Source: Geosiphon pyriformis uo1
Lineage: Eukaryota; Fungi; Glomeromycota
DNA: 64,000 nucleotides
Direction of reading: 5' to 3'
NCBI GenBank assembly: GCA_016748015.1
Contig: JAAOMT010000201.1
Location: 256,224 to 320,223, forward strand
The notes beneath the pieces were generated by a model. The model had not been told where the DNA came from. It saw only the letters and a program-made list of their open reading frames with translations, and searched no databases. Below, piece by piece: positions 13,701 to 57,584 of this stretch. Both the position numbers and the translations under genes were made by a program. Position 1 is the stretch's first letter; each line of letters opens with the position of its first letter.

Positions 13701-13789
13701 ATAATATTACAGGATGCATATTATTTTGACTATAGAAGAATAGAGGAGGTAATCAGGTATTCGACAGCCTCCAGCTAATTTTAAAGAAT

Positions 13790-15478: not shown

Positions 15479-15481
15479 TTT

Positions 15482-24400: not shown

Positions 24401-24892
24401 CTTTTCTTTTTTTTTTTTTCTTTTTTTTTTCTTTCTTATTTTGTTTGTGAAGCAGCAACATAGTAAAATTGATTGTCTGGGAATAGACTTTGTGATAGTC
24501 TGGTAAAAGAGGGAAGCTTCCCCTAAGTTTTGGATATTAACATTATCTTGTTAGCTTACCAGAAGGGCGAAAAGACAATGCCAGACTCTAATGATTCTGC
24601 TTGTTAGCTTGGAGAAGAAAGCTCACATTTACAGAAAACATTGCAATTGACAAAAAACAAACTCTGTGCCTTATAACAAAAAAACTCAACAGGTAAATTC
24701 ACATCCAGGAATAGATCTTCAGAGACTGATAATCAAGACTAAGCCAACAGAATTATACAGAAGATGCATCATCAATAATTGAGAGCACCAAACGTTACTA
24801 TTTTCCATACCCACCAAGTTTACTCATAATATTTGGTGCTCCCTGTGAGATTATAAATCCACAGAGACAGAGCACTCCAGAAATACACAAAA

Positions 24893-27800: not shown

Positions 27801-30682
27801 CACGCTGTGTCTCGCATGTGGCGAGATCCTGCCTGATGAAAAACTTTAGAATAATGTGCCTGGTAGAGGAGGAACATGCAACAAGGCTTGTCAATACACC
27901 ATATTAATCAACGATTGGGTATAAAAGAGAACTCCCATCGAGAACACTTGGAAACGAGCATTCAACAAGTTGGATGGTTATCCACATAATGACCACAAAA
28001 TCTGAAGAATAGCAAGCACCAAAGCCAAAAGTGCCATGCCCGAAGAGATACGAGAAATCAAGGATAACTTCTGGACACCCAAATATAATGAACCTAACTA
28101 TTCTGTAGACAATTTCTTTATGGATGACCCAGATGCATTTCAGAACCAATATCAAGAATTGGTCCCAACTCAAAAAGAACAAGAGCAAAGATTAGCTGAT
28201 TTAAATACCAAACTGTGCGATCACTGTTTGATCCTCTGTTATTTCCAGTACTGCAACAAATGTGATCTCATGTTCAATCTACTTCCAAGAATACTGTTTT
28301 CAATTACCAAACTACCTGAGTCTGAAGAAAAAGAGGTATTGATCACCAAAAACATGTCATTTCAAGATCCAACTGAGGATACTGAAACAGAACAGTATCT
28401 TGCATATTCCAACTTATTCAAAGAACTAGAGCTAAAATAGTACAGTGACAACGAAAAAGAAATCTGTTCCAAAAGAATGCATAATACCAATGCCAGTTTC
28501 AACCTATGATACTCTGGACAATCACCCATCATTATAGCCCCATATTCCCTTGTGAAAATAGATCTTAAAATAGCATTAGAAATTTCTGTTAGTACAATGA
28601 TACAAATTGCCTCTCAATTTAGTCTAGCCAAGAAAAAAATCAACATAAAAGAAGGAATCATTGATGCTGGTTACATAGAGAACATTATTATGATGCTACA
28701 GAACAATTTGGACAGACCCTACAAAATAGAATTACAAGAAAAGATTGTCCAAGCTATCTTCCTACCCCTAGTCAAAATACCCCAATTGACCCTAGTAACA
28801 ATTTGAGAAGAATTAAGCCTCACTGCCTAAGAAATCAACAGGTTTGGATCAAGTAGAAGAGGAAATGTACCAGTTAATTTCACAGAGAAAGACAGTGACC
28901 AAGTAGAATTTATCTATACTGACACTATTATCTCCATTCCCCATACCGACAATACATCTTCAAAGTGAATTGAAAGATCCAAGATCAAGCTCTATTATTT
29001 GAAGCCAGTTCCGAAATCTGTTTTCTAGCTAATGTTGCTAATTTATACCTACTGGCCAAAGCCCATAAACACTTCAAAATTTTCATTCACAACCTGACAG
29101 AAGATGTCATTGAAATCCCCAATGAGATCCTTGTCAGTTCCATATCCACAAATATTCAGAATCCTGAAAAACCCCAGTCCATTCCAGACTTCGCACAATT
29201 ATTTTTATTCTGCGATATTATCTCACAAATATAGAATTTGCCAAAAAAAAGTTACTTGTTTATATCAGAAGAGATCAATAAATTGAATTTAGGAAACTTA
29301 AGTACCTTACAACAAATGCAACTCAAAGTCCTTCTGAATCAGCATGCTGATGTCTTTGCCAGTGAAAATGAATTCAAACACACCAACATCATAAAGCATT
29401 AGATTGATACAAGAGACACTTGACCAATTAAGCAACAAGCTTACCATGTACTTCCATCTGGTGATAACCTAATTAAGCAAGAAATGCAATGAATGCTTGA
29501 TAATGGCTTAATTAAAGAATCGTTAAGCCCTTGGTCCTCTCCAGTAGTCCTGGTCACCAAGAAAAATGGAAAGGTACAATTCTGCGTGGATTACCAAAAA
29601 TTAAATAGCATCACACAAGAAAATAGTTATTCTACTTCTCTCATCCAAGAAATTCTGGACAATCTAGGAAAAAAGAAATAGTTCTCATTATTAGATCTAG
29701 CAAGTGGTTATTGGCAAGTTGAAATAGACCCCAAAGACAAAAGAAAAACAGCATTTATCACTCGAGACGAAAACTTCAAGTTTAACATAATGCCTTTGGA
29801 CTTTGTAATACTCCTGCCATATTTCAACACCTGATGGATGTAATATACAAAAAAATTCTTTGGAAATTAGTAGTAGTCTACCTAGATGACACAAATGTGT
29901 TCTCCAAAACATTTGATGACCATTTGCTCCATCTGCAACAAGCCTTCAAATGCCTTTGTAGTGCTGAATTGAAACTCAATCCCGAGAAGTGCTTCTTTGG
30001 AAAAACTGAGTTAAAGTTCCTAGGACATGTAATTGGCAAGGACAGAGTTAAACCCGATCCAGATAAAGTACAAAAAGTCAAGAATTTTCTAGCTCCAATT
30101 AACTTCAGAGAATTATAAGGATTTCTAAGATTGGCAGGATATTATTGTTGATTTGTCAAAAGTTTCTCGAACATCACAAAACCACTCCATCAATTGTTGT
30201 CCAAATACATACCATACTTGTGGAAAGAAGATCAACAGAAAGCATTCAACTATCTCAAGCAGTGATTGATCACATCTTCAATCCTGATCTACTTAGATTT
30301 TACTAAATGGTTCATTGTCACTATGAATGCCTTGAAAAATGCTTTAGGAGCAGTATTATCCCAAATAGGACCAGACAATAGAGAACATCTAGTTACTTAT
30401 GCCAGTCACAGCATAAGCCCAGCAGAAAAGAATTACAGCACAACAGATCTGGAATGCCTTGCCATTTATTGGGCCATACAGACTTAGAAACATTACCTCA
30501 ATCAACCATTTGACCTATATATTAATCACAAAGGACTTATTTGGTTACTTAATAATCCATAATTAGAAAGAAAATATGTAAGATGGAGTACTTATCTGCA
30601 ACAATTCTCACTCAAAGTCCATTACAAGAAAGAATCCAAGAACACCAATGCTGACAGTTTGTCAAGAATGCCACAAACTTAA
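24893..30682 (+). pseudogene. gag-PR-Cys-rich-dUTPase-RT-RNase H of family B element (degenerate)
   Basis: ORF fragments 25040-30487; dUTPase GIIDAGY..IVQAIF..GFGS; RT SPWSSPVV, VYLDD; RNase H ends NADSLSRMPQT*. Confidence 0.85.
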
Positions 30683-30692
30683 TCCCAGATCT

Positions 30693-32060
30693 ATGAACAC
30701 ATTCACTTATCAATAACTACATCAATATCTATCGACACTACATTTCAAAGAGATATTATCTCAACAGAAACAAAGTACTATAAGAAAACAAGCCCGAAAT
30801 TATTTTATTCAAGACAACCAACTATATCAACAAAAATGCCGAAACCACCCCACTCCATAATGACTAATCAAGAACAGTAAAAGAGAAACTATACTATATA
30901 GCATGCACTCAGATCCAATGTCAGGACACTTTAACAAAGATGCTAACCTTAAAAGAACACTAAATTTATACTATTGGCCAATGATATACAAAGATATTTT
31001 CGAATACATGCTTAATTGTGACACATGTCAGCAAAGAGGAGGAGCAAGATCAACAGAACCACTTTGACCCATTCCAGTTGGAAATCCATTTGATAGAATT
31101 GGGATTGATTTGGTTAATTCTTTTTCAATTACATCTAAAGAAAATCAGTATATTGCTGTAGCCGTTGATTATCTTACAAAATGGCCAGAAGCCAGAGCAA
31201 TTCAAGTGGCCAATGCCAAAACAGTAGCCAAGTTTGTACATTAAGACCTAATTTGCCAACATGGATGTCTAAAAAAATTGTTATCTGATCAAGGAACGCA
31301 TTTTGTCAATAATATGTTAACAGAATTAAACCAACAGTTTGGTATAAAACATTCTTTATCATCATCATACCACCCACAAACTAATGGACTGGTAAAATGG
31401 TTTAATCAAACACTGTGTAAAGCACTAGCAAAAATAAGTCAAGAAAACAAACAAGAATGGGACCTATTCATATCTTCAGTACTCTTTGCATACTGAACAC
31501 TAAAGCAAAATATGACACACTTCACATCATTCGAACTAGTCTATGGAAGAAAAGCTATGTTATCTATTAAACAAAAAATATTGTTCTACTCAACAAAAAC
31601 AATTACCAAAGAGAATTTTAAAGCTACTTTGTACTACAAAATGTACCAGTTAATGGAAACATTAGAAAACAATCGAAAAACAGCAGCTGATAACATTAGT
31701 AACACTCAAAAACAACAAAAAAAAAGACATAACAATTGCTTATTTGAACAACCAATAGAATTCAAGATTGAAGACCAGATACTGTTATATTGTACAAAAG
31801 CTGAGAAACAGTGGAGTGGAAAGTTCGACCCAAAGTGGGACAGTCCATTCCACATACATAAAGCTTTAGGAAATAGAGCTTACAAACTACAATTGGAAGA
31901 CAGAATTTTAAAGAAAGTAGTGCATGAAAATTGGTTAAAAATTTATTATGCAAAACAGGAATCATCATCATCAGTACCTCAACTAAGAACACAAATTTCA
32001 TTAATCAGACCAGAAGATATACCATGAAATCTGAAACCAATCATCATTATCGAAATGTAG
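30693..32060 (+). pseudogene. Integrase of family B element (degenerate)
   Basis: HHCC (MHSD..GH..CDTCQ), GIDL, SDQG, YHPQTNG, GPF-like W(D)SPFHI; no chromodomain seen. Confidence 0.9.
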
Positions 32061-32140
32061 ACAACATGCAGCAAATTAAATTGGGGAATTCAAATATATA
32101 TAGCATCTGAAAAGCAGCAAGAAACGATAGAAATTTCAAC

Positions 32141-32875
32141 ATGGATCTTTCAGATCAAATTTTAAAATTATCTAAACAATTATTTGAAACAATTCAAAAA
32201 TCAACATCTCAAATAGAAATAACAATTAATAAAAAAGAGATATGGTACAAAGATAAGAGCAGGAGAGGGGAGAACAAAAGTTCAATTAAAACTAAATGTT
32301 TTTTTTTCTACCCACCACCCAAAAGACAATGTTGGAGGAAAAATTGTTTTCAGACAGAAGGTGAAGAAGAAAAAGGCAAAGAACAAGAAAAAAATTACAA
32401 AAGAAGATACTTGGTCTCTGAACTCGAAAAAATAAAAGAAACTTTAGCTTGTAGGACCGAACTCCCTGAAACAGGAAAGTGGACACTTGACAATGCCCAG
32501 GAATGGAAAAAAAAACTTCCTTTAGCTTATTGGTTCTACAAAATTGGAGAACAGCTTGACTTGAAGACACCATACGAAGACTTCAACCAGAAAATGTTCA
32601 ACAAAGAAGCAATACAACAAGTAAAAAAATTTGTAGGGAAAAACAATCTGACTCTACATTACAAAGCAGCATACTGACTATACACCACCTTCCAATATTG
32701 CCCAAATGTACTATTGAACAGATCTATGAAAACCATAATGGTTAACAACATAGGATGAATAACCAATTAACAGTTCAAAGACCTATAAAAGACAATATTT
32801 GAGACAACAATCGAACATTACACAAACAAAGCCATGATAACAGATACATATGGTTTTGCAAGAGCTCAATTTTAA
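32141..32875 (+). pseudogene. Extra 3' ORF (ORF3, ~245 codons) of family B element, unknown function
   Basis: ATG 32141, same frame continues past decay stops to GFARAQF* abutting the PPT; homologues in five other copies. Confidence 0.75.
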
Positions 32876-35800
32876 AAAGAGGAGGATAATATTACCCAAG
32901 TAGAAAAACCAATCCAAAGTTATGAAGAAACATGACATAACACAGAATAGCGCAATAATGTTGGATAACGTGTTATAACATAGGATAATGTGTTATAACA
33001 CAGGATAACAAAGAATAGCACGCAATAACATAGAATAATGTGTTATAATACAGGATAACACAGAATAACATGTAATAATGTCAGATAATGTGTTATAACA
33101 TAGGATAACTAGCAATAATATAGAAAAACAAAGCAATAACAGAAATAACAAAGCAATAACTAGTGATAGCGAGACAATTGAAAGCAATCCTGTAAAACCA
33201 AAAAAATGTATAAAAAGCAAGTAGTTGTAGAAGTTAGAAAAGGCAGACAAATAGATAGATACAAATCTCTAGACAAGAATCAAATATCCATACCCTTTCA
33301 TCATTTTTCTCCCTATTTTATCTTCTGAAATAACCAATTATTAAAGAAATCAGAGTCATAAATTCATGTTCCTAAACTTCATGGAATTTACATGAATTAA
33401 CCCTTGTCTCATACTTTCATTTTAGGACAGATGCTCTTAGCATAACTGCCTCAAACAATCAATAATTTGGACCAATCACTCTTGATCATGGCGATTAATG
33501 ATACTAATTTATCTTTTCTTTCTTATTTTTTTTGTGGAGTGGCAACATAGTAAAATTGACTGTCTGAGAATAGACTTCATGATAGCCTGGTAAAAGAGGG
33601 AAGCTCCCTCTAAGTTTTGAATATTAACATTATCTTGTTAGCTTACCAGAAGGGTGAAAAAACAATGCCAGACTTTAATGATTGCACTCATTAGCTCGGA
33701 GAAGAAAGCTCACATTTACGGAAAACATTGTAATTAATGAAAAACAAACTCTGTGCCTTATAACAAAAGAACTCAATAGGTAAATTCACATTCAGAAATA
33801 GATCTTTAGAGACTAATAATCAAGACTAAGCCAACAAAATTATGGTAGAAGACATATCATTAATAATTGAGAGCACCAAATATTATCATTTCTCATACCC
33901 ACCAAGTTTATCCATAACAACAAATTCAGCAATGAATTCTGCATCTGCTCTTTGAATGGCTTTTGCTTCTGGCCATTTAATGAGATAATCTATAGCTACT
34001 ACAATGTATCTGTTGCTTCTGCTAGTAATTGTTAATGATCCAACTAAGTCAATTCCAATTTGATCAAATAATTGTCCCACTTTGATTGGTCTTAATGGTT
34101 TACTTAGTCTTATTCCACCTCTTCTCTAACAAGCATTACAATTCTAAACATATTGGATGATGTCTGGATACATTAATGACCAATAGTATTTTTTTCTGGT
34201 TTTTTCTATGGTTGTTTCTTTATGAAAATGTCCTGTTGCTGGATCTGAGTGCATGTTAAACAGTATTGTTTCTTTTTCAGGTTCTGTAATTACTCTGGTT
34301 GGTTGATTTGGATTTCTTTGGTTTTTCTGGTACAGTATATTTTGATAATTGATAAAATATTTTAATTGCTGTTTTATGTTGTTTTGTTCTTTTTAAGATA
34401 ATTTCTCCTTAAACAATTGGGTATTTATATAATGTTGGAGTTGTTGGTATTTTTGTATATTTATTTTTTGTTATATTTTTGTGTTGAAATGTTTTTAGAT
34501 TTGTTTTATTCGTGACAATCCATCAGCATTTCTGTTGTCTTTTCCTTTTTTATAATGTACTGTATAATTGAATAGTAAAAGTTCTATTTTCCATCTGACA
34601 TGGCAGTTGTCTCTGAATTCTTGTTTCTGAATTGAAGTCCATCCTTTGTGATTAGTATACACCTCAAACTTTTGGTTTAAGTATTCTCTCCATTTGATAA
34701 CAGCCCAATAGATTGCTAAGTGTTCTAGTGCTGAAGTTTTATAGTTCTTTTCAGCTGGACTTAAGCTTCTACTGGCATAAGCTACTGGATGTTCTTTTTC
34801 ATCTGGTTTTTTCTGTGATAGTATGGCTCCTAATACTTGGCCTGATGCATTGGTGGTAATGATAAATGGTTTGTTGTGGTCTGAATACATCAACACTGGA
34901 GCTTAAATAAGCTTCTGTCTCAGTGTGTTAAATGCTTTTTGTTGAGCTTTTGTCCATTCATACTTGACATTCTTAGTTTGTAGATAATAAAGCAGCTGAG
35001 CCAGTTTAGAAAAGTCCTTGATAAAACAATGATAGTAGTCTGCAAATCCCAAAAATGCTCTTAATTCCATCAAATTGGTTGGTACTGAAAAGTTCTTTAC
35101 TATGGCAATCTTATCTGAATCTGTTTTTATACTATATTTGCTTACAACATGTCCCAAAAACTTGAGTTCATTTTTTTCAAAAAAATATTTAGTTGCATTT
35201 AGTTGCAATCCGGCTCTTCTGAGTCTTTCAAATACTTGTTAGAGATAATGCAGATGATTATTGAATATTTTTGAGAACACATTGATATCATCCAAGTATA
35301 TGACTACTGATTTTCATAACAGTCTAGTATAGAAAATACCCATAAGCCATTGAAATATTGCTGGAGTATTTATTAAGCCAAATAATATTACTTCAAATTT
35401 GAAATTCTCTTTTTGTGTAGTGAAAGCTGTTTTTTCTTTATCTTCTGGTTTTATAGCTACTTTCCAGTAACTGCTGTCTAGATCTAATGTTGAGAATCAT
35501 TTTTTTCCTCCAAAAGTGTCAAACAGCTCTTGAATCTTTGGAGTTGGGTAGCTGTCTCCTTTTGTTACTCCATTCAATTTCCAGTAGTTTACACAAAAAC
35601 GGATTTTTTCATTTTTCTTCTGGACTAGTACCACTGGTAATGACCATGGGCTCATTAATGGCTGAATTAGCCCATTGTCAAGCATTTGATTGATTTCTTG
35701 ACGAATGATTTTATGGCTGGCTGGTGGTACTCTGTATGCTCTTTGTTTAATTGGCATTGTATCTCCAGTCTTGATTTGATGTTAGATAATATCAGTTCTG

Positions 35801-37359: not shown

Positions 37360-40300
37360 TGTTATAGATGATTATTTAAGATCTTAAATCAAATAACAAA
37401 TCTGTAACTTGGTGCTCAATATCTTAACAATGCTGGTGATACTAGTACATTGGTTATATCTAAAAGTTTTAGAGTTGAGTCCTTTGTATAATAGACAGAG
37501 ATTTAAATGATGGCTTTATCCATAGCTTCCCAAAACTGCAGTTTTATCAAATTTCTTTCTTAGCATGGTGGCTGGTAATCTTTCTGGTAAGCTATCCTCA
37601 AATTTATAAGTGTTCTATCTTTGTTTCACAGGTCTTTTACCAGTCCCTATGATGTCTGTATCTCAGCACTTAATCTTTAATAAATTTTAGTAAAACCCAA
37701 GAAATAACAAAAAAAAATAAAAAAAAATAAAAAAAAATAAAAAATTTTAACAAAAAGCAATTGCAAGTTAATATCCTGTTAATAGCCATGATCAAGAGCT
37801 ATTGTTCCAGTATAATTAGGTATCAAGTACTATCAACATGAAGTGTTAATAGTGGAGAGTGTATTAAAATGGCAAATAATTATTTATTGATATTTATGAA
37901 TAGAAGATTGCTTAGATCAAAACTAAACTGAGAGGTCTGTTCTTTTTTCTTCTAATGCTATTGCTATATATACATAATTTGGGTTCTACAAGATCACTCA
38001 CATTCTCGAACAATGTGCTATAATTTTTCAAGCAATGCTCACATTGTTGAGCAATGTGCTGTATTTTTTTGACATTGCTTTATATTGCTAAGCAATGTGC
38101 CATGATTTCTGACATTGTTCCACATTGCTGAGCAATATGCCATGATTTCTAATATTACTCTACATTGCTGAGCAATGTGCTCGCATGTTACTACTACTCA
38201 CTTATTAGTCGACTATTTTTTTATATATTTGTTTTCTTTTTATAAGTAACATTATCTCTTCTTTTTTAATATTGAGCTCTGTTGAAATCTTTGTTTTGAA
38301 TTAGTTCTAATACTTCTTTTTCAAGTATTGTTTGTTCAACTCTGTTTCTCACATCTTCTACTTGTGTATTGTTTATTTTTCTCCATTGGTTAATGGTAAT
38401 GACTTTCATGTCCGAGTGTAACAGTATTTCTAAATAGTTCCAAAATATGTTGTATAGTCAATACATTGTTTTAATATGTAATGTTGAATTTGTTTTCTTT
38501 CTGATAAATTCTTCAATTTGTTGTATTATGTCTTGGTTAAATATTTTTTTAGATTTGTCGATATACAACTCCTAAATATTCAACTTCTGACCTAACTGGT
38601 AGTAACAGTATAATATTGGAAGTTGTTCTGTTTATTGTTTCTAATTCTCTTTAGTGAGTTTTTCTGTTGGTGTCATCATAGGTATTGTCCCAAAAGTGTT
38701 CTTTACTTTTTCTATTATCTTCTCTGACCAGTTTTTATCATTCTTTGATAACCATTAATATGGTATGTTCTTTGTCTTTCTTTTGGTTTTTTGATAGCAA
38801 ATTGTTTGGTTGTTAATGATAATTTCCATGTTTAACTGTTGTTGACTTAAGGCCTGGAACAGTTGTTGAGCTATAGTGTGAATATGATCTGGTATTTCTA
38901 TTTTCTTGGTTGCTTTTGTTGCGTGTATTGTGCCTTTATATACTCTTTTGGGTTGTTTGATTTGACGTGTTTGGTTCGATAATTATGATTGGTTTCAGAT
39001 CTCATGGAATCTCATCTGGTTGAACTAGTATTCTTTGTACTCCTAGTTGTAGAATGTTATTAGTGAATGATGATGCTATCTGGTGATATTGTTTTAGTCG
39101 ATCACCATGTGCTGCTTTGGCTAAGATTTTGTTGTCTCATCTTAATTTATAAGCTCCATTTCCAAGAATTTCTTCTATGTGAAATGGTCTATCTCATTTG
39201 GGGTCAAATTTTCCACTCCATTGTTTTTCCACTTTAGTACAATGTAGAAGTACTTTGTCTCCAATCTTGAATTTAACTGGTTTGTCTGATAGTTGGTTAT
39301 CATGTCTCTTTTTTTGTTTTTCTTGTGACTTTTAAATGTTATCAGCTGCTCTTTGTCACTTGTTTTCTAGAGTTTCCATCAAGTCATATGTTCTTCTTAG
39401 CAATGTTTCTTGAAAATTGTCTTCAGTTATTGGTTCTGTTGGATATGACTTGACTTCTATCTCAACTGGTAATATTGCTGTTCTACTGTAGACTAATTCA
39501 AATAGTGTTGCTTGTGTAGTGTTTTGTTTCATTGTTTAATAAGCAAATAATACTGATGGTATAATCAAGTCTTATTTGTCCTGGTTTTTTTGGCTGATTT
39601 TGGCAATGGCTTCACACAATGTTCTGTTAAACCTTTCTACTAATCCATTTGTTTGTGGATGATATGGTGATGATAATGGTCTTTTGATTCCAAATCTTTG
39701 ACTTAATTCTGTCAATGTTCTGTTTACAAAGTGGATTCCTTGATCTGATAGTAGTTATTTTGGACATCTATGTTGACAGATCAAATCTTGATGAATGAAT
39801 TTGGTAACGGATTCTGCGTCTGCTCTTTGAATTGTTTTTGCTTCTGGCCATTTAGTAAGATAGTCCATGGCTATTGCAATATATCTGTTGCCTCTGCTAG
39901 TGATTGTTAGTGGTCTGACTAAGTCAATTCCAATGTGATTAAATAGTTGTCCCACTTTAATTGGTCTTAATGGTTCACTGGGTTTTGTTCCTTCTCTTCT
40001 TTGACAAACATTACAATTTTGAACATATTAGATAATGTTTGAATACATTAATGACCAATAGTATCTTTTTCTAATTCTTTTCATGATTGCTTCTTTATAA
40101 AAATGTTCTGTTGTTGGATCTGAGTGCATATTGAATAATATTGTCTCTTTTTCTGGTTCTGTGATTACTCTGGTTGGTTGATCTGGATTTTTTCTGTTCT
40201 TCTGGTAAAGTATATTTTGATGATTGATAAAATATTTTGATTGTTGTTTTATGTTCCTTTGTTCTTTTCGAGATAATTTTTCCTGAAACAAATGGGTATT

Positions 40301-43300
40301 TATATAGTATTGTAGTTGTTGGTATTTTTGGATATTTATCTTTTGTTATATTTTTAGGTTGAAATGTTTTTAAATTTGCCTCATTCGCAACAATCTATCA
40401 GCATTTCCATTGTCTTTTCTTTTTTTATAATGTACTGTATAATTGAATGGTGAAAGTTCTATTTTCTATCTGGTATGGCGATCATTTGCAAATTCTTGTT
40501 TTTGGATTAATGTTAATCCTTTGTGATCAGTATATACATCAAACTTTTGGTTCAAGTATTCTCTCCACTTAATAACAGCCCAATAGATAGCTAAGTGTTC
40601 TAATGCTGGAGTTCCATAGTTCTTCTCAGCTGGACTTAAGCTTTTACTGGCATAAGCTACTGGATGCTCTCTTCCATCTGGCCTTTTTTGTGATAGTACT
40701 GCTCCCAATACTTGACCTGATGCATCCGTGGTGATTATAAATAGTTTGCTATAGTCTGGATACATCAGTACTAGAGCTTGGATAAGCTTTCTTCTTAATG
40801 TGTCAAATGCTTTTTGTTGAGCTTCTGTCCATTCATACTTCACATTCTTGGTTTGTAGTTGGTAAAGTGATTGAGCCAGTTTTAAAAAGTCTTTGATAAA
40901 ACAACAATAGTAGCCTGCAAATCCCAAGAATGCTCTTAGTTCCATGAGATTGTTTGATACTGGAAAGTTCTTGACAACTTCAATTTTGTCTGGATTTGTT
41001 TTGATGCTATCTTTGCTCACAACATGTCCCAAAAATTTTAGTTCTATCTTTCCAAAGAAACACTTAGTTGCATTTAGTTTCAATCTGGCTCTTTTAAGTC
41101 TTTCAAATACTTGCTGGAGGTAGTGCAGATGATCATCAAATGTTTTTGAAAACACATTTGTGTCATCTAGATAGACAACTACTGATTTCCATAGTAATTC
41201 AGTATAGATGATTTCCATAAGTTGTTGGAATGTCACTGGAGTGTTTATCAAGCCAAATGGCATGACTTCAAATTCAAAATTCCCTTCTCTTGTTGTGAAT
41301 ACAGTCTTTTTTTTGTCGGCTGAGTTCATGGCTACTTGCCAGTAACCACTATCTAAATCTAGTGTTGAGAACCATTTATTTCCTCCAAAAGCATCAAATA
41401 GTTCTTGGATCTTTAGAGTTGGGTAGCTGTCTCCTTTGGTTACTTCATTCAATTTCCAGTAATCTACACAAAAGTGGATTTTTCCATTCTTCTTCTGGAC
41501 TAGTACCACTGGTGACAACCATGAACTCATTAATGACTGAATTAGCCCATTGTCAAGCATCTGATTGATTTTTTAACAAATGATCTCATGGCTAACTGGT
41601 GGTACTCTGTATGCTCTTTGCTTAATTGGCATTGCATCTACAGTCTTGATCTAATGCTGGATAATGTTGATGCAGTCAAATTTATTTTTGCTTGCAAAGA
41701 TGTTATTGAAATTGCTGAATAATATCTTTAGTTGTATTTGTTGAAGTGGATCTAGATTTCTCATGTTGATCTGTTCCAATTGTTTTAATTGGAGCAGATA
41801 ACATTCACTTTGTCTGTATATAGTCTGTGATATGATGTTTACATATCCACAAAGTTGTGGAAAGTCTGGAATGTGGTTTAGTGGTTGATCCTCAACTTTG
41901 GTGGTTAAATATTTAATGATAGTTCCCTTTAGTATCTCGATGACATTTCTTATTGTGTTGTAGATGGGAATTTTGATATTTTTGGAACTTTTGGCTAATA
42001 TATAGAGATTAGTGAGTTCAATCTCTCCTGATTTGCAAATGGCGGCTTCTACTTCAAACAACTGAGCTTGATTCTTTACTTCTCTTTTTATGGCTAACAT
42101 ATACTGGTCATATGGTGAAATGAAAATTGATTAACAGGTTGAGATAATTTCTCCTTTGTTAGTAATTTCTTCTTTTGCTATATTAACTGGTATATTTATT
42201 CTACCCATTGATCCAAATCTCTGTATCCCTCTAGCTGTAATTCCTAATTCTTTCCTGTTTCTCACTGACATTAGCTGAGTTACTTTCACCAAAGGTAGGA
42301 ATATTGCTTGTGCTATCTTTTCATTTGAATCTATGGTATATGTTTTTTCTAAGTTATTTTGTAGTATAGCAATGATATTTCCTATGTATCCTGCATCAAT
42401 TATTTCTCCTTTGATGTTGATTTCTTTTTTTGCTAAACTACTTCTGGATGCTAATTGAACCATTGTTGTTGCTGGAATTTCCAGTGCTATTTTCAGGTCA
42501 ATGCAAATGCACAAATGTGGTTCTAATTTGAGGAGATCTTTTTCTGGATATCTTAGATCAAATCCTGCATCAGTATCGTGTGCGCGTACTGACATGATAT
42601 CTTCACCATTATTGCTGAATCATTTAAGTTCTTGTTCCTTGATGAGGTTGGGAAGTGCAATAAATGTTTCAGAGTCTGAATCGAAGTTTGAATTGTTGTA
42701 ATTTTTGTTGCTAATTGGAGCAGAGCTAGAACCATTGTTTTCGTCATCATCATTGTTAAAGTTTGAATCGGAATTGAGAATCAATTCTGATTTAGATGTG
42801 CAGCTGCTAATTGGTTCTTCTTCTGAGATTGTGTATATCATGTGGATTGAGGGGTTGTAAATAAGATCAGACTCATTACAATATTGAAAGTCACATGGGA
42901 TTAAACAGTGGTCACAAAGTTGAGTGTTTAATTGTGCTAAACATTCTTTTTGTTCCTCCCTTATGGGTGTTAAGTTTTGATAATGCTTATGGAAATCTTC
43001 TGGGCTGTTTTCTAAGTTAAGGAAAACATCTGAGTTGAGAACCAAAACGATGTCTGTTGGTTCTGGAGAGTTGTTTTTGATCTTCAGAATTTCACTAAGT
43101 AAAGCACCTTCTACTTTGGCATTGGCTATTCACCAGATTTCATTCTTGTCATGTGGATAACCTTCTAAGCGAGAAATCACTCAGTGCCTGACTACTATAA
43201 GAGGTGTTTCATGACTCACCCAGTTGCTAATGAGTATGGTATATTGGCATGAAGTGTCACATGTTCCTCCTTGACCAGGAATGTCATTCCACATTCCTTC

Positions 43301-46300: not shown

Positions 46301-46451
46301 AAAGTTTTTCTCACTGATTCAGTGTTTACTGATGTCCCTAACAAATAGGCAATTCTATTGTTAACATAAAAATTGAAGGCTGATTCTGCTAATATATGAT
46401 TATGATTTAATTTCAAGTGTTGACAGTAGTGTTGAAATAAGGATTTTGCGA
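37360..46451 (-). mobile_element. Second Gypsy family A element: 3' LTR 37360-38251, internal to 46451, resumes 56629-56732
   Basis: PPT after 38251; ORF3, integrase, RT/RNase H ORF 40466-41560, dUTPase 42131-42595, gag fragments 44668-46451. Confidence 0.9.
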
Positions 46452-47341
46452 TATTACAGGTGATTATTTCTGCTGTCAAACCAAATAACAAACCCATAAC
46501 TTGGTGCTCAAAGCTAATTGCAGTTGCTATTGATCTGAAGATTTAGTATCTGAAGGTTTTGGTTGAGTTCTTTGTATAATGGATAGAGATTCAAATGGTG
46601 TCGATAATAGATGTATCCTTCCAAGAGTTTTCCTAATTTCTTTCTCAGTGTGATGGCTGGATTTAGTCTGGTAGTCGTGCCTTTCTGGTAAGCTATCCGA
46701 TAATATATATATAAAATCTTACTCTTATTTTTGGGTCTTTTACCAGGCTATTCTTAACGTCAATAACTCAGCACTTAATCTTTTAATCAATTAGTATACA
46801 ATAACAAAATCAAAAATGGAAAAAATTGAAATAAATAAAAAATAAAAATAAAGAAAGTAAAGAAAATAAGCCAAGGCAATTTGGTCTGTTAGTATCTCGT
46901 CAATAGCCGTGATCAAGAGCTATTGTTCCAGTGTGGTTAAGTATCAATTACTATCAACATGAAGTGTTGATAGTGGAGAGTGAATTAAGATATGGAATGA
47001 TTATTTATTTAATGATTAGTTTCTTGGCTAAGGATTCTGTGGTATTGATTCTGTCTTTTTTGTTTCTAATACTACTGCTATATATACATAATTGAGATTC
47101 CTCAATTTTTCGATTCTTTACGACAAGAATCCTGGAATTCCTGGAATCCTGCGAGTCCTTTGAGAGGAATCCTGGAATTCTGGAATTCTGCAATTCCTCA
47201 TTGAGAATCCTGAAATTCCTGGAATCCTGCAATTCCTAAGAGGAATCCTAGAATTTCACATTTACTATGCTTACTTCTGATTGGCTAATAATTATGCTAA
47301 TATAATTCCTATATTTCTATGAGTAACATTATTCCCTCCTT

Positions 47342-47974
47342 TTAATATTGAGCTCTATTGAAATCTAACTCATGTAATTCCCTCTCTTGAAGTATTTCCT
47401 GGATTTTGTTTTTGAGAATTACTTGTGTTATTTGGGTCTGTAATTCTTCAAATTGAGTATTGGTGATTTTTCCCAATTGATTACTAGTCACCATATCTAT
47501 TTCTCTGTTGAGCAATATTTCTGGTTTATTCTAAAATGCTGTGTGTATTCGGTATATGGCTCGGGCTTGTGTGAATAAGTTGTTCTTTCCCAAAGAATGT
47601 TCTAATTGTTGTAGTATTCTTTTGTCAAATAATTGCTTTGTTTTATCTGTATATAGATTCTGGATATTTATGTGTTGTCCCAAGTAAAAATAACAATAGT
47701 TTCATGGAAATTGTTGTATCCACTAATTCCAAGTTTCTTTAGTCAACTCTTGATATAGTGACTCTTTTGTCAATTCTTTGATTATTGCTAATTTTACTTT
47801 CACAATGATTTTGTCCACTGTATTTTCAGTTTTTTTTTGTGTTCTGAGTTGTAATGTCTTTCTAGTATCTTGATATCGAATAGTTTGTTGATTGATTGTA
47901 ATCTCCATTTTCTGGTGTTGGATTAATTGAAAGAGTTATTGTACTAGTGAGTGAATGTTGTCTGTAATTTCCAT
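47342..47974 (-). pseudogene. ORF3 of best-preserved family A element
   Basis: ATG 47974 to TAA 47342 (DFNRAQY*); TATATAAA at 48015-48008. Confidence 0.7.
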
Positions 47975-48028
47975 TTTTCTGATATTTCCTATCGCGTCTA
48001 CCATGTCTTTATATATTCTTTTGATGAA

Positions 48029-49411
48029 TCAATTTAATGTGTTGTTATCAATAATAATGATTGGTTCCAGATCTTGTGGAATTTTATCTGGTTGGACTAG
48101 TATTCTCTGTATTCCTAATTGTGGAATATTACTGGTAGATGGTAATGTGATGTTGTGATATGGTTTCAGTCGATCTCCATGTGCTGCTTTGGTTAAAATT
48201 TTGTTATTCAATCTTAATTTGTAAGCTCCATTTCTTAGAATTTCTTTTATGTGAAATGGTTCGTCCCATTTGGGATCAAATTTTCCACTCCATTGTTTTT
48301 CTGCTTTGGTACGATGTAGTAATACTTTGTCTTTAATCTTGAATTCAACTGGTTTGTCTGGTAGTTGACTATCATGTCTTTCTTTCTGTGTTTCTTGTGA
48401 CTTTTGGATATTATCAACTGCTCTTCTTCATTTGTTTTCCAATGTTTTTATTAAGTCATATGTTTTTTTCAGCAATGTTTCTTGAAAATTTTCTTATGTT
48501 ATTGGTTCAGCTGGATATGTATTAATTTCTCTCTCTACTGGTAATATTGCTATTCTCCCATATACTAATTCAAATGGTGTTGTTTGTGTAGTATCCTGTT
48601 TCGTTGTCCGATAAGCAAATAGTACTGATGGTATGAACAAATCCCAATTGTTTTGGTTTTTTTGGCTGAGCTTGGCTATTGCTTTACACAACATTCTGTT
48701 GAATCTTTCTACCAATCCGTTGGTTTGTGGATGGTATGGTGATGATAATGGTCTTTTGATTCCAAATCTTTGGCTTAATTCAGTTAATGTTTTGTTCACA
48801 AAATGAGTTCCTTGGTCTGACAATAATTCTTTTGGACATCCATGTCGACAAATCAACTCCTGATAAACGAATTTGGCAATGGATTCTGCATCCGCTCTTT
48901 GAATTGCTTTTGCCTCTGGCCATTTAGTAAGATAGTCCATAGCTACTGCTATGTATCTGTTTCCTCTGCTGGTGATTGTTAATGGTCTGACTAAATTAAT
49001 TCCCATATGGTCAAATGGTTGTTCTACTTTGATTGGTTTTAATGGTTCACTGAGTCTCATTCCTCCTCTTTGCTGACAAGCATCACAATTTTGAACATAT
49101 TGAATGATGTCTGGATACATTGATGGCCAATAGTATCTTTTTCTAGTTCTTTCCATGGTTGCTTCTTTGTGAAAATGTCCTGCTGTTGGATTTGAGTGCA
49201 TGTTGAATAATATTGTTTTTTTTTCTGGCTCTGTAATTACTCTGGTTGGTTGATCTGGATCTCTTCTATTTTTCTGATAAAGTATATTTTAGTGAGTGAT
49301 AAAATATTTTGATTGTTGTTTGATACTCTTTTATTCCATATGAAATAAATTCTCCTTGAACTGTTGAGTATTTAGATAATGTTGTAATTGTTAATATTTT
49401 TGTATGTTCAT
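48029..49411 (-). pseudogene. Integrase
   Basis: ORF 48494-49201 with H..GH..CDACQ, SDQG, YHPQTNGLVER; own ATG at 49411. Confidence 0.9.
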
Positions 49412-49473
49412 CTTTTGTTGTATTTTCCATTGGTATTGTTCTGGTTTTATTATATTTTTGGTTTGAAATGTTC

Positions 49474-52400
49474 TTAGATTTGTCTTATTCGCAATAAACT
49501 ATCAACATTTCCATTGTCTTTTCTCTTTTTGTAATGTATAGTATAATTGTATAGTGCGAGTGCCATTTTCTATCTTGACTGTCTTCCATCTCCAAATTCT
49601 TGTTTTTGGAGTGATGTCAATCCCTTGTGATCTGTGTATACTTCAAATTTCTGGCTTAAGTATTTTTTCCATTTCATAATGGCCCAGTATATTGCTAAGT
49701 GTTTTTGTTCTGGTGTTCCATAGTTCTTTTCGGCTGGTGTTAAATCTCTGCTGGCATATGCTACTGGATGTTTTCTGCTGTCCAGTTTTCTCTGAGATAA
49801 TACTGCTCTCAATGCTTGGCTGGATGCATTAGTGGTAATGATGAATAGTTTGCTGTAATCTGGATAGATCAGTACTGGAGCTTGGATGAGCTTTTTCCTC
49901 AGAATATCAAAAGCTTCTTGTTGACTTTCTGTCCATTCATATTTCGCATTTTTGTTTTGTAGTTGATTGAATGGCTGCGCTATCTTGGAAAAGTTCTTGA
50001 TAAAATGACAATAGTAGCTGGCAAATCCCAAGAATGATTTCAGTTCTGTTATATTGGTCGGTACTGAAAAGTTCTTTACTATCTCTATTTTCTCTGGATC
50101 CATTTTGATGCCATCTTTACTGACTATGTGTTCCAAAAATTTGAGTTCCGTCTTGCCAAAGAAGCACTTTGTCACATTTAACTTCAGTCCTGCTCTTCTT
50201 AGTCTTTCAAACACTTGTTGAAGATAATGAAGATAATCATCAAACGTCTTTGAGAATACATTGGTGTCATCCAAGTATACAACTACTGATTTCCACAATA
50301 AGCCCGTATAAACAATTTCTATTAACCATTGGAAAGTCGCTGGGGCATTGGTTAAACCAAATGGCATTACTTCAAATTCGAAATTCCCTTCTCTAGTAGT
50401 AAATGCCGTCTTTTTTTTGTCAGCTGGATACATGGCTACTTGCCAGTAACCACTGTTCAAATTTAATGTGAAGAACCATTTGTTCCCACCAAAAGCATCG
50501 AATAATTTCTGTATTCGTGAAGTTGGATAACTGTCTCCACAAGTTACACCATTGAGTTTCCTGTAGTCTATACAAAACCGGATTTTTCCATTTTTTTTAC
50601 GGACAAGTACCACTGGTAACAACCATAGACTTATTGATGATTGAATTAGCCCGTTGTCAAGCATTCTGTTTATCTCTTGACGAATAATCTCGTGGCTGGC
50701 TGGCAGTACTCTGTATGCTTTTTGTTTGATTGGCATTGCATCTTCAGTCTTGATCTGATGCTGGATAATGTCAGTTCGGCCAAACTCATTTTCACTGGCA
50801 AAGATGTTATTGAACTTGTTGAGTAATATCTTGAGCTGCATACATTGGAGTGGATCTAAGTTTCCCATGTTTATTTGTTCCAATTGTTCTGGTTGGAGCA
50901 AATAACATTTGTCTCGTCCATAGATTGTTTGTGATGTGATGTCAACATATTCACAAAGTTGTGGAAAGTCTGGAATAGGGTTTAGTGGTTGGTCTTCTAT
51001 TTCTGTGATTAAATATCCAATGGTCGTTCCTTCTGGTATGGTGATGACATTGCCAGTATTGTTGTAGATGGGAATTTTTATGCTGCTATAGCCTTTGGCT
51101 GGTATGTGGAGATTGATCAACCCAATCTCTCCTGATTCACAAAGGGTTGTTTCCGCTTCAAACATCTGTTCTTGCTTCTTTTCTTTCCTTTCTATTGCTA
51201 ACATGTACTGGCTATATGGTGGAATGGAAATAGCTTGACCAGTTGAGATAATTTCTCCTTGGCCAACAATTTTTTCCTCTGCCATGTTAACTGGTACATC
51301 TATTCTACCTGTGAATCCGAATCTCTGTATTTCTCTCGCCATGATTCTTAATTCCTTCCTCTTTTTCACTGATACTAACTGAGCTATTCTAACCAGAAGC
51401 AGGAATATTGCCTGTGCTATCTTTTCATTGGACTTTATTACATAGGCTTTTTCTGAGTCATTTTGTAGCATAGCGATGATATTTTTTACATATCCCACGT
51501 CAATTATTTCTCCTCTTATATTAATCCCTCTTTTCGCTAAACTACTTCTAGATGCTAATTGAATCATAGTTGTTGCCAGAATTTCTAGTACTACTTTCAG
51601 ATCAATGCAGGTGTGTAAATGTGGTTCCAATTTGATGGCATTTTTTCCTGGATATCTTAGATCAAACCCTGCATCAGTATCATGCACACATTCTGGCATA
51701 ATACCTTCCCCATTGTCACTATACCATTTCAACTCTTGTTCTTTGGAGAGATCTAATAGTGCAATGTATTGTTCATAGTTTACCTTGGAGTTTGTATCTG
51801 AGTTGGAATCATTGTCATTGTCATTGCCATTTTGAATGGAGTTTGAACCATTGTTGTCACCATCATTGTCAGAGTTTGAATTGTGATTGATTGGTGATCC
51901 TGATTCTGATGCGCAGCTGCTGATTGGTTCTTCCTCTTCCAGAATCGTATAAATCATGTGTGGTGGTGGATTGTAAATGAGGTCACACTCATCACAATAC
52001 TGGAAGTCACAGGGAATTAGGCAGTGTTGACATAGTCAAGCATTCAACTGCTCTAATTGTTGTTCTTGTTCTTCCCTTGTGGATGCTAATTCTTGGTAGT
52101 ATTCGTGGAATTGTTCCGGATCCAGGAGGTTTATGATGGGTTCTGCATCTCAGTCAAGCTTTAAAGGTTCTGGGGGGTTGTCTTTGATTGTTTTTATCTC
52201 TTTTAGTGTTGCTTCTTCAATTTTTGCAAGTGCCATTCGCCAAATTTCATTGTTGTCAAGTGGGCAACTGTCCAGTCGTTGTATGGCTCTTCTTCAGGCT
52301 GCTTTTATTGGGGTTTCTTTCTTTATCCAGTCACTTATTAGAATTGTGTATTGACACGATACATCACACATTCCTCTTCGTCCAGTAATGTCATGCCACA

Positions 52401-55400
52401 TTCCTTTGTCCAAGAGAGTCTCTCCACAAGCTAAGCATGGCTGATTGTCCCATTTCCCTACTCGTTTTGGTCTTCCAAAGCGTTCAAGGATGCATGAGCG
52501 GCAATAAAACCTAGTTGCTGTTGAATATTCCTCATCATCCCCACAGCATGCACCCATTAACAACAATTTCTTGCCACAATTGATGCATATAAGCTTAGGT
52601 CGACGATAGATAGATTGTTGTGGTATAGTGTAGGTGTTATAAGTGGTAGTGGTTTGAGTGGTCTCTTTTTCTTTTCCTTTCTCTTTATTTTCTTTGTCTT
52701 CTTCCCATTTCCAGCTTGAAGTCGGTTCGCTCTCATCGTTGTCGGTCCATGTCAGGTCATCAGTTTCCCAGGTAAGTTCTTCCTTTTGTTTCCCTTTTCT
52801 CTTGTTGTTGTCGTCCCAAGAGAGTATTGGTGGCAGCTTGTTGTGCTCTTCATCAGCCCACAATACTTGGTAGGCTTCCCAGATAGGCTTTTCTTTCTCC
52901 TCCTCCAGCTCGATCAATAGTTTCTCTTTTGAAGGAGTTTTGAAGTGGCCATATGTGGCCGGAACAATGTGTTGGGCCTGATACATTAGCTGGAGTTCTT
53001 GGGTGTTCCAGTTTAATGTTGCATTGACTTTGAATAGCCAGTCATTACCAACGAGAGCTTGGTATTGAGTGGCTTTCATTACTAGAACTTTAATGGAAGT
53101 TACTATGCCATTGACTTCAAAAGGGAAATTGTCAATTTCGCTGATGGGAGTTTTGGTCGTTCCATTGGCTGTGATGATTTTGGTGCTGGCAGCTCGATTA
53201 ACTCAGCGACCTAATTGTTCCATGAGTTGTCTAGTGATTATACTGCCAGCTGATCCACTATCTAGGATGAGTTTGATGGGGTGACCATCAACTCTGGTAT
53301 CTGTGTACATTGCTGTTATGGGTTTTTCTTCGAGAGTGGCTCCATTGAATAATGGTATTGGTGCATTTTCTTCAAGTTCAAAAGGAAAAATGACTGGTAG
53401 GAATTCGTCGCTAGAGATGGTTGCCAGTGGAATGGTGTTGGTAGGTACGTGCTGATTGAATTCTGTGTTGTTAGATGTGATGTTTTCTGGGGTAACTAGG
53501 AGACTTAAATAATGTTGAGAATTTGGGTTTTGGACGCGACTGGTATCCAAATTCTGGATGCGTGATCCTGATGGTGGGTTTAGCAAACTGGGGATTGGTT
53601 GGTGAACAACCATTGCCAATCTCCAGTTTTGAGTGACTCTGGATCAAGGATTGCCTGATGTCATTTGAGCTGGGTTTTGGGTTGGTGTTTGAATTGGTTG
53701 AGGTTGATAGATGATTTGTGGCTGCAGTTGATATATTACTTGTGGCTGTGGCTGATGAATCGGAGGTTGATATACTGACGGTTGATAGATTGGTTGCTGC
53801 GTCATGGGCAGGTAATTATTTCAATATTGATCTTGACTCTAATTTGAATAATGATTCGGAGTTTGGAACTGGCGATTGGGGTTTTAATATTGATTTCCCA
53901 ATTTTTGGTTATTTAGACACTGGCAACAGTCAATTTGGATATGACCTTGTTTACCACAATAGTGGCAGATACGTGTTTCCTGTTGTCACTGTTGATTAGT
54001 CGATGAAGATAGACATAGTTGATTTTGGCCACGATTAGAATTTCCTTGATTATTGCGTCATTGTGGAGACTGATAAATGGCATGATTGTCAGCTAAGTAT
54101 CCTTCCAATCTCTTATTAATTGATTCACTGAACTTCTCCAATTTAGAATCCAATTCAGATGATCCATTCATTACTAGGTTAATGGCTTGGGCATGGTTAG
54201 CCTCTGACTTGGCAGATTCAAAATCTTTGGCATGTGTAACTGCGTCTTGAAAGGTACCTGGATGCAATAGCCATACATGTTGCAATATGCTGCTGCACAA
54301 GCCACGGATAAACTGATTGAGTATCTGTGGTGCTGTGAAATAATTGGCATCAATTGCTTGAATTTGGCATAGGTTTTGATGGAAGCATCCCAGGTAAGTG
54401 GTAACTGCTTCAGTTTCTCCTTGTTTTATGGTGGTGAATGCATTAACTAGGCAATTGATGCTGTTATTGTTGCTGAAGTATCTTAGAAATTCAGCTTTGA
54501 AGACATTGAAATCTTGTGGTTTATTAACCAAGCTCTAATACCATGAATTGGTGGTATCCTTGAGAAAGTAGGGAATGGCTTGCATTGCTCGAGCGTCATT
54601 CCATCCATTGACTGTGATGGCTTTTTCTACATCGTTCAGCCATATTTGAGTGTCATCCTCTTTGCCAGTAAAGTTGTTGAGTTTTGCAATTGGTGCATAG
54701 GCCATTGGATCTAAGTTAGGTGGTTGTAGTGGCTGTTGAAGCAGTTGTTGTTGTCCTGGCTGTTGGGGTGGTAGTTGAAGTAACTGTTGTATAAGTTCGG
54801 CTACAGGATTAATTGGCAGTTGATCGATGACGATTACTGAAGGTAAGTTTTGCTGATTAATTAATTTAGGGTTTTGATTTTTTTGATTTGGCGGCGTTTG
54901 AATATTCGGAGTTTCGATTTCCGAATTTTTTAACTGTTGCTGAGTTTGAATGTTTGGGGTTTCAACTTCTGGATTTTTAGTGATTGGGTGCTGATAAGTG
55001 AATTCTTGATCCTCTGATTCTTCTTTCTTCTTTTCTGATTCCACTGCTTCTCATGGATCAGAGATTCTGAAATTTGGTGGAGGCGGTGGTGATCGAAGTC
55101 CTGATGGGGTTGATGATCGCGAATTAAATCCCTCAAAGTATTTCTCATATGGTCCTAACAATTCTGTTTTCCTTTGTCTACTTTGGAATGGGAATCGTCC
55201 AAATGCTGATGTCGCAGTTAATGAGAACACGTCTGTTGATGATATGTTGATGGTGCTTTCAGGTGTATAGTGGTAGGATGGGTTGCTTGGGGATTCAACT
55301 CTGTTTTTCTTCCAAGCAGGTGGCTGTATTTTTCTGGGTGTTACTGCTGGTGTTTGTAATTTTTCCTTGTTTTTACTAGTGTATATAATTGGATATCTTT

Positions 55401-55689
55401 GTTGAGTGTGATGTTCAATTTCTTTGTTGATCTCAGTAATGATGAATGCGAAATTATGATTTGTTGGTAGGTTGGTGTTTTGGATTAATTCCTTATAGAA
55501 AGTTTCTCTTGCTGATTCAGTATTCATTGGTGTTCCTAATAAAGAGAAAATTTTTTAGTTGATGTAGAAATTGAAGACTGATTTGGCAGATATATGATTG
55601 TGGTTTAATCCCAAGTATTGACAATAGTGTTGAAATAAGGATTTTGTGAATCCTAAATGGTTTGCTCCTATAGTTTCTGATTCTGCCAC
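49474..55689 (-). pseudogene. gag-CCHC-PR-Cys-rich-dUTPase-RT-RNase H polyprotein region (degenerate)
   Basis: CHYCGKQGHIQIDC knuckle, LILDSGS protease, dUTPase DAGFDL/SRSSLA/IIDVGY/KIAQ/FGFTG, RT VYLDD, RNase H; 795-aa open segment 49570-51957. Confidence 0.92.
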
Positions 55690-57584
55690 TTTTGGTTTGG
55701 TGTTGTCGGTGCTGGTTCTCTGTAAGATTATACCTTACAGGGAGCACCAAATGTTACAGGTGATTATTTCTGCTGTCAAACCAAATAACAAATCTGTAAC
55801 TTGGTGCTCAAAGCTAATTGCAGTTGCTATTGATCTGAAGATTTAGTATCTGAAAATTTTAGTTGAGTTCTTTGTATAATGGACAGAGATTCAAATGGTG
55901 TTAATAGTAGATATATCCTTCCAAAAGTTTTCCCAATTTCTTTCTCAGCATGGTGACCAGATTTAGTCTGGCAGTTGTGCCCTTCTGGTAAGCTATTCGA
56001 TAATATATATATAAAATCCTACCCTTATTTCTGGGTCTTTTACCAGGCTATCCTTGACTTTAATAACTCAGTGCTTAATTTTTTAATCAATTAGTATACA
56101 ACAACAAAATCAAAAATGGAAGAAAATGAAATAAATAAAAAATAAAAATAAGGAAAGTAAAAAAAATAAGCCAAGGCAATTTGGTCCATTAGTATCTCGT
56201 CAATAGCCATAATCAAGAGCTATTGTTCCAGTGTGGTTAAGTATTAATTACTATCAACACTTCATGTTGATAGTAGAGAGTGAATTGAGATATAGAATAA
56301 TTATTTATTTGATGATTAGTTTTTTGGCTAAGGATTCTGTGGTATTAATTCTGTCTTTTCTGTTTCTAATACTACTGCTATATATACATAATTGAGATTC
56401 CTCAATTTCTCGATTCTTTACAACAGGAATCCTGGAATTCCTGGAATCTTGCGATTCCTTTGAGAGGAATCCTGGAATTCTAGAATTCTGCAATTCCTCA
56501 TTGAGAATCCTGAAATTTCTGGAATCCTGCAATTCCTAAGAAGAATCCTGGAATTCCACATTTACTATGCTTACTTCTGATTGGCTAATAATTATGCTAA
56601 TATAATTCTTATATTTCTATGAGTAACAACGAATTCTAAATGGTTTGCTCCTATACTTTCTGATTCTGCCACTGTTGATTAGTTTGTTGGTGCTGGTTCT
56701 CTGTAGGATTAGATCTCACAGAGAGCACCAAATATTACAGATGATTATTTGTGGTCTCAAATCAAATAACAAATCCATAACTTGGTGCTTAATATCTTAA
56801 CAATGCTGGTGATGCTAGTATGTTGGTTATATCTGAAGGTTTTAGAGTTGAGTCCTTTGTATAATAAACAGAGATTTAATTGATGGTTTTATCCATAGCT
56901 TCCCGAAACTGCAGTTTCATCAAATTTTTTTCTCAGCGTGGTGGCTGGTAATCCTTCTGGTAAGCTATTCTCAAATCTATAGTGTTCTACCTTTGTTTTG
57001 CAGGTCTTTTACCAGTTCCTATGACGTCTGTATCTCAGCGCTTAATTTTTAACCAATTTTTAGTAAAACCAAAGAAATAACAAAACAAAAGAAATAAAAG
57101 AAAAATAAAGAAATAAATGAAAACAATTGCAAGTTAGTATCCCATCAATAGCCGTGATCAAGAGCTATTGTTCCAGTGTGATTAAGTATCAATTACTATC
57201 ACCATAAAGTGTTAATAGTAGAGAGTAAATTGAAATGGTGAATAATTATTTATTAATATTGTGGATGGAATGTTTTTAACTAAAGAATTCTTCTTTTTCT
57301 ACTTCTAACATTATCACTATATATACATAATTGATGTTCTATGAGATTGCTCACATTCTCGAGCAATGTGCTATGATTTCTTGAGCAATGTGCCCTAATT
57401 TTCTAACATTGCTCCACATTACTGAGCAATGTGTCATGTTTTCTAATATTGCTCCACATTGTTAAGCAATGTGCTGTGATTTCTGTTATTGTTCTATATT
57501 GCTAAGCAATGTGCTTACATGCTAAATGCTATTTGCTTATTGGTCTACTATTTTCTTATATCTCTTTTCTTTTTATGAGTAATA

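Follow-up and report, generated by a model that had tools for sequence, protein, structure and literature searches.

A separate integrase gene downstream of a conserved Gag-Pol stop in a lineage of Ty3/Gypsy-type retrotransposons

In LTR retrotransposons and retroviruses, production of integrase within Gag-Pol is thought to be the route that sets its amount and brings it into the particle. The DNA analysed here, a 64,000-nt stretch from Geosiphon pyriformis uo1 (the window), holds retrotransposons in which RNase H ends at a stop codon and the integrase lies beyond it. This raises the question of whether the layout is real or a product of decay, and how such an integrase would be expressed. A sequence-only reading of the window had proposed a separate integrase ORF after a conserved stop, expressed by reinitiation, splicing or a subgenomic RNA.

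Elements in the window and their RNase H-integrase junctions

The window is AT-rich and crowded with decayed LTR retrotransposons, and the RNase H-integrase junction is present in four copies, three of which (A1, A2 and A3) are 76-82% alike, while the fourth (B) is 63-68% alike to these. Element A3 is a complete, decayed Ty3/Gypsy-type LTR retrotransposon (46451..56628, minus strand) that sits in the start of element A2, and its LTRs (55751-56628 and 46451-47328) are 92% alike. Element B extends from LTR to LTR over 23768..33917 (plus strand; LTRs 87% alike) and sits in the A1 integrase. A3 and B each retain an LTR pair, a primer-binding site, a polypurine tract and a 4-bp target duplication (decayed), and each therefore moved as one complete unit. 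The Ty3/Gypsy hallmarks (TG..CA LTR ends, primer site, purine tract and 4-6 bp duplication) were found in both, with ends and duplications decayed by transitions, and Pfam identified Gag, protease, dUTPase, RT, RNase H and integrase in the Gypsy order (Gag-PR-RT-RH-IN). Starts and stops in the window decay at CA/TG and CG sites, a methylation- or RIP-like pattern, and the window copies themselves are dead. Outside the retrotransposons, several long ORFs at 10543-16796, one with weak LRR matches, are flanked by an inverted 960-nt repeat (6209-7171 and 17217-18178) and by a 334-nt inverted repeat that is 99% alike (8637-8970 and 16642-16975).

In A3, the dUTPase-RT-RNase H part of the Gag-Pol frame (49474..52035, minus strand; one decay stop at 49570-49572) ends in RIRQI-stop, with the TAA at 49474..49476 (minus strand). 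Upstream, between protease and dUTPase, lies a Cys-rich, zinc-finger-like, acidic segment without a Pfam match (52294-53202, minus strand). The stop is followed by an A-rich, unstructured spacer of 62 nt (49412..49473, minus strand), an integrase ORF with its own ATG, H2C2, core and SH3-like end (48029..49411, minus strand; five decay stops), and a decayed third ORF that ends at the purine tract (47342..47974, minus strand). The A2 junction (40337..40372, minus strand) comprises TAA (40372-40370), a 30-nt spacer, a second in-frame TAA and ATA at 40339, and opens a decayed integrase whose end is approximate (39020..40339, minus strand). The A1 junction (34462..34497, minus strand) has the same parts, with TAA at 34497-34495, a 30-nt spacer, a second in-frame TAA and ATA at 34464; its integrase is split by the insertion of B into a first part (33919..34464, minus strand) and a remainder at about 22995-23770. 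In family B, the junction (30680..30695, plus strand) consists of TAA (30680-30682), a 10-nt spacer and ATG at 30693, and is followed by a decayed integrase ORF (30693..32060, plus strand) and a third ORF of 178 aa (32141..32677, plus strand), with matching third ORFs in A1-A3 and in metagenome locus L001.

These positions bear out the stop and start coordinates of the sequence-only reading in all four copies (four TAAs, ATG at 49411 and 30693, ATA in the other two), and its placing of the integrase out of frame in two of them (A3, 62 nt; B, 10 nt). Its spacers of 62 nt and 10 nt stand for A3 and B, whereas the 24 nt that it gave for the others is really 30 nt in A1 and A2, which are still in frame. 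The second TAA of family A had been placed six codons on; there are seven codons between both TAAs.

The distance from the start to the YYW motif is 92 codons in all four window copies, which matches the stand-alone homologues. Among 15 stop-bearing alignment columns in Pol and 11 in the integrase, the junction stop was the sole stop common to all three A copies, and one further column was common to two. The junction stop is also present in family B, whose row is misaligned upstream by a frameshift. The stop stands at the same place in a loose-end line from 12 contigs of a sequencing run that may be the source of the window. The single ATG inside the A3 spacer reads ACG in 25 contigs of this run, or 61% of the depth, and is likely a decay product.

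If the stops had instead arisen in each dead copy on its own, from CAA codons by C-to-T decay, the transition-rich state of these copies (62 of the 68 differences between the A3 LTRs are transitions) would be in keeping with it, and A1 and A2 would read in frame. However, only the junction stop is common to all copies, and it persists in intact relatives as TAA, TGA or TAG (in 23, 9 and 7 of 39 families, respectively), which leaves this explanation with next to no probability.

The split layout among relatives

At the protein level, a search restricted to 145-462 aa gave 1645 matches, of which the best 120 (51-64% identical) were examined; as this length limit favours stand-alone integrases, longer forms were searched separately. 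A Met stood at the place of the window ATG in 91 of the 120, while 25 started further in and 4 had short extensions, and the RNase H end motif was found in none of these best 120 of 1645. Among 368 matches to longer forms, two scored as high as the best 120. Both are NCBI gene models (P0122 and P0123) that skip the RNase H end as well as the integrase start, and these fusions look like predicted introns bridging the RNase H-integrase gap. Fused proteins called as plain ORFs were at most 45% identical. The named relatives were from Rhizophagus and Cetraspora, and in the atlas the clusters nearest to such an integrase were mostly from Mucoromycota; these relatives point to a probable host among mycorrhizal, Glomeromycotina-type fungi. 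Two further models, P0125 and P0127 from Rhizophagus irregularis, have a thymidylate-kinase-like or P-loop domain ahead of the integrase.

At the DNA level, we examined the best 80 of 509 metagenome matches together with one locus from a viral collection. Both the RNase H end and the integrase were visible in 41 of these 81 loci (an ATG was not required), and the other 40 missed one part on the contig. All 40 metagenome loci showing both parts, among the best 80 of 509, had a stop between RNase H and integrase; the distant viral-collection locus, the only relative from that collection, had a fused RNase H-integrase. Unbroken Gag-Pol and integrase frames were present in several loci; in the intact locus L005, an unbroken Gag-Pol frame of 1621 aa is followed by a stop, 72 nt and an unbroken integrase. 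With the stop kept in relatives, the Met conserved and the junction stop alone common to the window copies, the proposal of a separate integrase ORF after a conserved stop holds, and the split layout is a real, lineage-wide variant of Gypsy elements, not decay.

After manual correction of the start in ten loci, clustering at 80% identity placed the 40 loci and the four window copies in 39 families. Stop and start overlapped in 9 families (-14 to -1 nt, with ATGA and TAATG forms among them), the spacer was 10-163 nt in 25 and 365-943 nt in 5, where the 943-nt value reflects a premature stop and the true gap is 61 nt. In 34 of the 39 families, the start thus lay between -14 and +163 nt relative to the stop. 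In 16 families, including three of the four window copies, stop and start were at most 30 nt apart, and in 23 they were further apart, so close coupling of stop and start is not general. The four families with spacers of 365-727 nt had 7-12 ATGs there, and some had extra ORFs. Extra ORFs between RNase H and integrase were observed in L025, L048, L051, L060 and L066, loci that are related to the P0125 and P0127 models.

The trees were built without named Gypsy reference clades. In the RT-RNase H tree, 20 of 21 split elements formed one group (support 89), and the group that also takes in the 21st and two fused elements had a support of 97. In the integrase tree, 25 of 26 split elements came together (87/92), and the 26th grouped with two fused ones. 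These topologies suggest that a single origin of the split elements is likely. The elements form a large old group, probably of soil and root fungi. On the contigs of L004, L006, L012, L018, L036, L038 and L054, a new Gag begins behind the third ORF, the pattern that collapsed LTRs would give in high-copy elements with recent activity. In L010, L039, L050 and L052, a single in-frame stop splits the Gag side from the Pol frame at a similar place and is a possible readthrough site.

A fused RT-RH-IN protein might still be made via readthrough, frameshift or a small intron. This would suit the integrase frames of A3 and B, which are open back past the Pol stop for 29 and 37 codons, respectively, the fused gene models P0122 and P0123, and the two fused elements inside or beside the split group in both trees. 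However, the integrase uses all three frames relative to Pol across the 39 families (13, 14 and 12), and its own frame has a stop after the Pol stop in 23 of 28 junctions with a positive spacer. In 28 of the 39 families, including all window copies, the stretch from the RNase H end motif to the stop has no GT donor usable for a fusing intron. Neither of the two gene models includes the RNase H end or the integrase start, and the invariant Met is left unexplained. We consider a fused protein very improbable, and readthrough, frameshift and a fusing intron are, as judged from the sequences, ruled out for most families. The outcomes that would have spoken against a separate ORF in the sequence-only reading, CAA for TAA with a continuous RNase H-integrase frame or a small intron removing the stops, were therefore not borne out: intact relatives keep the stop, and the donor is missing from most families.

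Expression of the integrase, a hairpin and a third gene

Among reinitiation, a spliced RNA and a subgenomic RNA, the sequence evidence leans to reinitiation. These are Gypsy-lineage LTR elements with a separate integrase gene and then a third gene, and we regard it as an even call that their integrase would be made by distance-tolerant reinitiation on a polycistronic full-length RNA. Ribosomes would stop at the end of Gag-Pol and restart downstream on the same full-length RNA, and the restart would tolerate anything from small overlaps to about 170 nt, via a short backward move or a forward scan of the kinds described for LINE-1 and cauliflower mosaic virus. A hairpin, in its subgroup only, may help to place the ribosomes. 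The free integrase would then join the particle by binding Gag, Pol or RNA, not as part of Pol.

In 20 short spacers, ATG was the most depleted of the 64 trinucleotides (5 against 13.1 expected, p 0.0015), a depletion that is weak after testing 64 words, with AAT nearly as depleted and, under a cruder shuffle, CAT and GTA low too. Five short spacers or their twins hold one or two ATGs. Within the last 60 nt of RNase H, an ATG is present in 37 of the 39 families, so a ribosome that arrived by scanning from a more distant 5ʹ end would be trapped. The integrase start has a purine at -3 in 30 of 36 families and G at +4 in 25 of 36. Both the avoidance of ATG and the good start context fit a separate mRNA equally well. 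The 18S-complementary TURBS motif, which we take to be UGGGA, was found upstream of the stop in 1 of the 39 families, and no cis signal was common to the whole group.

Own capped mRNAs for the integrase and the third gene, arising from internal promoters or by leader splicing as for retroviral env, are a somewhat unlikely alternative. They would account for the four families whose long spacers hold many ATGs and for the strong context of the integrase ATG. The spacer of L055 has a TATA-like word, a pyrimidine tract, a branch point and an acceptor, that of L011 has a branch point and an acceptor, and both spacers contain textbook fungal 3ʹ splice sites; in 16 of 36 families, a YAG stands 16 nt upstream of the RNase H end. 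Yet branch-point and acceptor signals showed no excess, at 7 against 6.3 in shuffles (6 against 3.4 by a strict definition, p 0.12), and the stretch from the last ATG upstream to that of the integrase had no AG in 5 and no YAG in 9 of 36 families. The YAG at -16 is a by-product of Ala-Asp codons and has an ATG directly after it, and overlapping stop-starts at two junctions would be unexpected with separate mRNAs.

The hairpin is a 50-nt element that ends 0-25 nt before the integrase ATG, once per locus, in 20 loci and one weak match (for example, L005:5193-5232 and L016:914-953, and 18 more loci). It has a short outer stem, an 11-nt purine-rich bulge, a 6-bp stem and an 8-nt loop, with invariant unpaired letters. 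Across 18 sequences, both partners vary in 8 of the 10 pairs and 96.7% of cells are paired, against 0-3 two-sided pairs in slid controls; the structure was drawn from the same sequences, and their relatedness inflates the shuffle control. Rfam gave no match for the hairpin in 16 loci, and a search of the viral collection for it gave none either. On the integrase tree it maps to one subgroup (18 loci, support 89) with two R. irregularis proteins inside, and to one outlier, L043, in which the hairpin is present and the integrase falls outside the subgroup, so that a module swap or a misplacement is possible. Hairpin loci with a visible Pol have a long acidic, Cys/His-bearing Pol tail of 216-315 aa. 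In a sister subgroup, a second conserved hairpin-like motif lies before the integrase start (L068:414-470, L070:38-70 and L074:386-422).

So placed beside the start codon, the hairpin would hinder plain scanning. Its position, covariation and invariant unpaired letters could also reflect internal entry or RNA cleavage at a structured element, this hairpin or other motifs, independent of upstream translation. We hold this to be clearly improbable: the hairpin is missing from the window copies and most families, the window spacers are unstructured, single-sequence folding was no stronger than that of shuffles, and packaging or regulation could equally be its function. Families without the hairpin had no common 6-mer before the ATG. 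A 34-nt match to the hairpin model in the A2 RNase H (40622-40655, E 0.005) was weak and taken as chance.

Of 52 rows in which the integrase end could be placed, 24 have an ORF of at least 100 aa after it, many of the others ending too early to tell, and most of the 24 are homologous to each other (for example, L033:1596-2042). A decayed third ORF is present in all four window copies and is tied to the family via L001 (E 2e-7 in both steps, with small databases). A search with the third-ORF profile matched 610 clusters at 50% identity, and one cluster among the matches listed was fused behind an integrase core. The junctions between integrase and third ORF (24 calls) include -8, -4, -1, +2 and short gaps, a style like that of the RNase H-integrase junction. 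The structure model of this protein is all-helical and confident (pLDDT 96.8). It had no Pfam match, no PDB sequence match below E 0.1 and only weak atlas matches; the fold search gave a best Z of 4.5 (rmsd 3.3, 70 aligned), which is no clear match and does not imply a new fold, and the viral fold library gave none. Under the reinitiation reading, the third ORF is the sole candidate for an activator of the cauliflower mosaic virus (CaMV) type, which keeps eIF3 on ribosomes.

Relation to known systems and implications

The elements resemble Ty3/Gypsy (Metaviridae) in their LTRs, primer site, purine tract and the order of Gag capsid, protease, RT, RNase H and H2C2 integrase, and the best PDB match of the intact L005 is Ty3 Gag-Pol (E 9e-108). 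The third-best PDB sequence match in that search is presumably cauliflower mosaic virus. The elements differ from Ty3/Gypsy in an integrase outside Pol with its own Met and in the conserved third ORF after it, and as the integrase is not made within Pol, they are filed as a Gypsy-lineage variant, not as a canonical member. The fungal elements PosPlaTy3-5 likewise bear a dUTPase, which in the window elements lies between protease and RT, and are described in the available text as having one or two ORFs with the integrase in Pol (PMC2864245). As far as the available sources go, Lokiretrovirus and Odin elements keep the integrase in Pol, and the accessible parts of the Troyka and Tat papers describe no separate integrase. 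The layout was not found described in the literature searched; Repbase, subscription papers and the supplement of PMC2864245, which were outside that search, may hold it. New here are the range of spacers, the conserved third gene, the covarying hairpin and the start-residue match to Ginger1-like transposases, which group with the split integrases.

Several systems reach a second ORF by restart, which for the window-type elements is a proposal. In the accessible text, SART1 has an overlapping stop-start with structure downstream of the stop, and LINE-1 restarts across a 63-nt spacer (PMC5972666, PMC10275272); however, both are non-LTR elements, and their junction parts ORF1 from RT, not RT from integrase. 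The TURBS stop-restart of caliciviruses and influenza B is given there a stop-start limit of 20-30 nt, and the AUGA and UAAUG overlaps of some split families resemble those of TURBS and of stop-restart in the fungal viruses CHV1 and HvV190S (PMC10275272), but most split families exceed 20-30 nt and lack the TURBS motif. CaMV has an RT related to Gypsy and several tightly spaced long ORFs, and its TAV-driven reinitiation is described as needing no cis signal to cover anything from a small overlap up to 700 nt, and as requiring a virus-made activator (PMC5972666), whereas the third ORF here is a candidate only.

Ginger1 transposases are Gypsy-like integrases that, in the text available, begin with a YPYY segment and have Ulp1 or OTU at the end, and Bao and colleagues placed no Gypsy lineage clearly beside them (PMC2836005). 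The split integrases share with Ginger1/Gin-1 a stand-alone Gypsy-type integrase that opens with a YPYY segment of roughly 40 aa and has H2C2 and a DDE core (PMC2836005). By contrast, the window elements have direct LTRs, Gag and RT, without terminal inverted repeats or Ulp1/OTU, and their integrase ends after about 460 codons. Two integrase-plus-Ulp1 proteins, P0178 and P0238, start with Met exactly where the stand-alone integrase profile begins (position 1). Five proteins of this type, identified as Ginger1 by domain content only, grouped with the split clade (100/98) against 23 fused Gypsy integrases in a sample picked by similarity to the window integrase. Kinship of the split integrases with Ginger1 may be taken as a lead. 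A fuller picture, in which an old, large polycistronic lineage of fungal LTR elements, sometimes with further genes, would combine repeated restart on one RNA, its own structured RNA signal, perhaps an activator, a third protein of novel fold, integrase packaged without a polyprotein and a living link between Gypsy and Ginger1, is unlikely as a whole.

A successful lineage without integrase in Gag-Pol needs other routes for integrase dosage and particle entry, and the split elements offer a testable fungal case of restart after a very long ORF. The layout also accounts for faulty gene models and 'broken' calls in the genomes of mycorrhizal fungi, and is relevant to the unsettled relationship between Ginger1 transposases and Gypsy integrases. 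As R. irregularis carries such integrases, public RNA data could be used to test the expression route.
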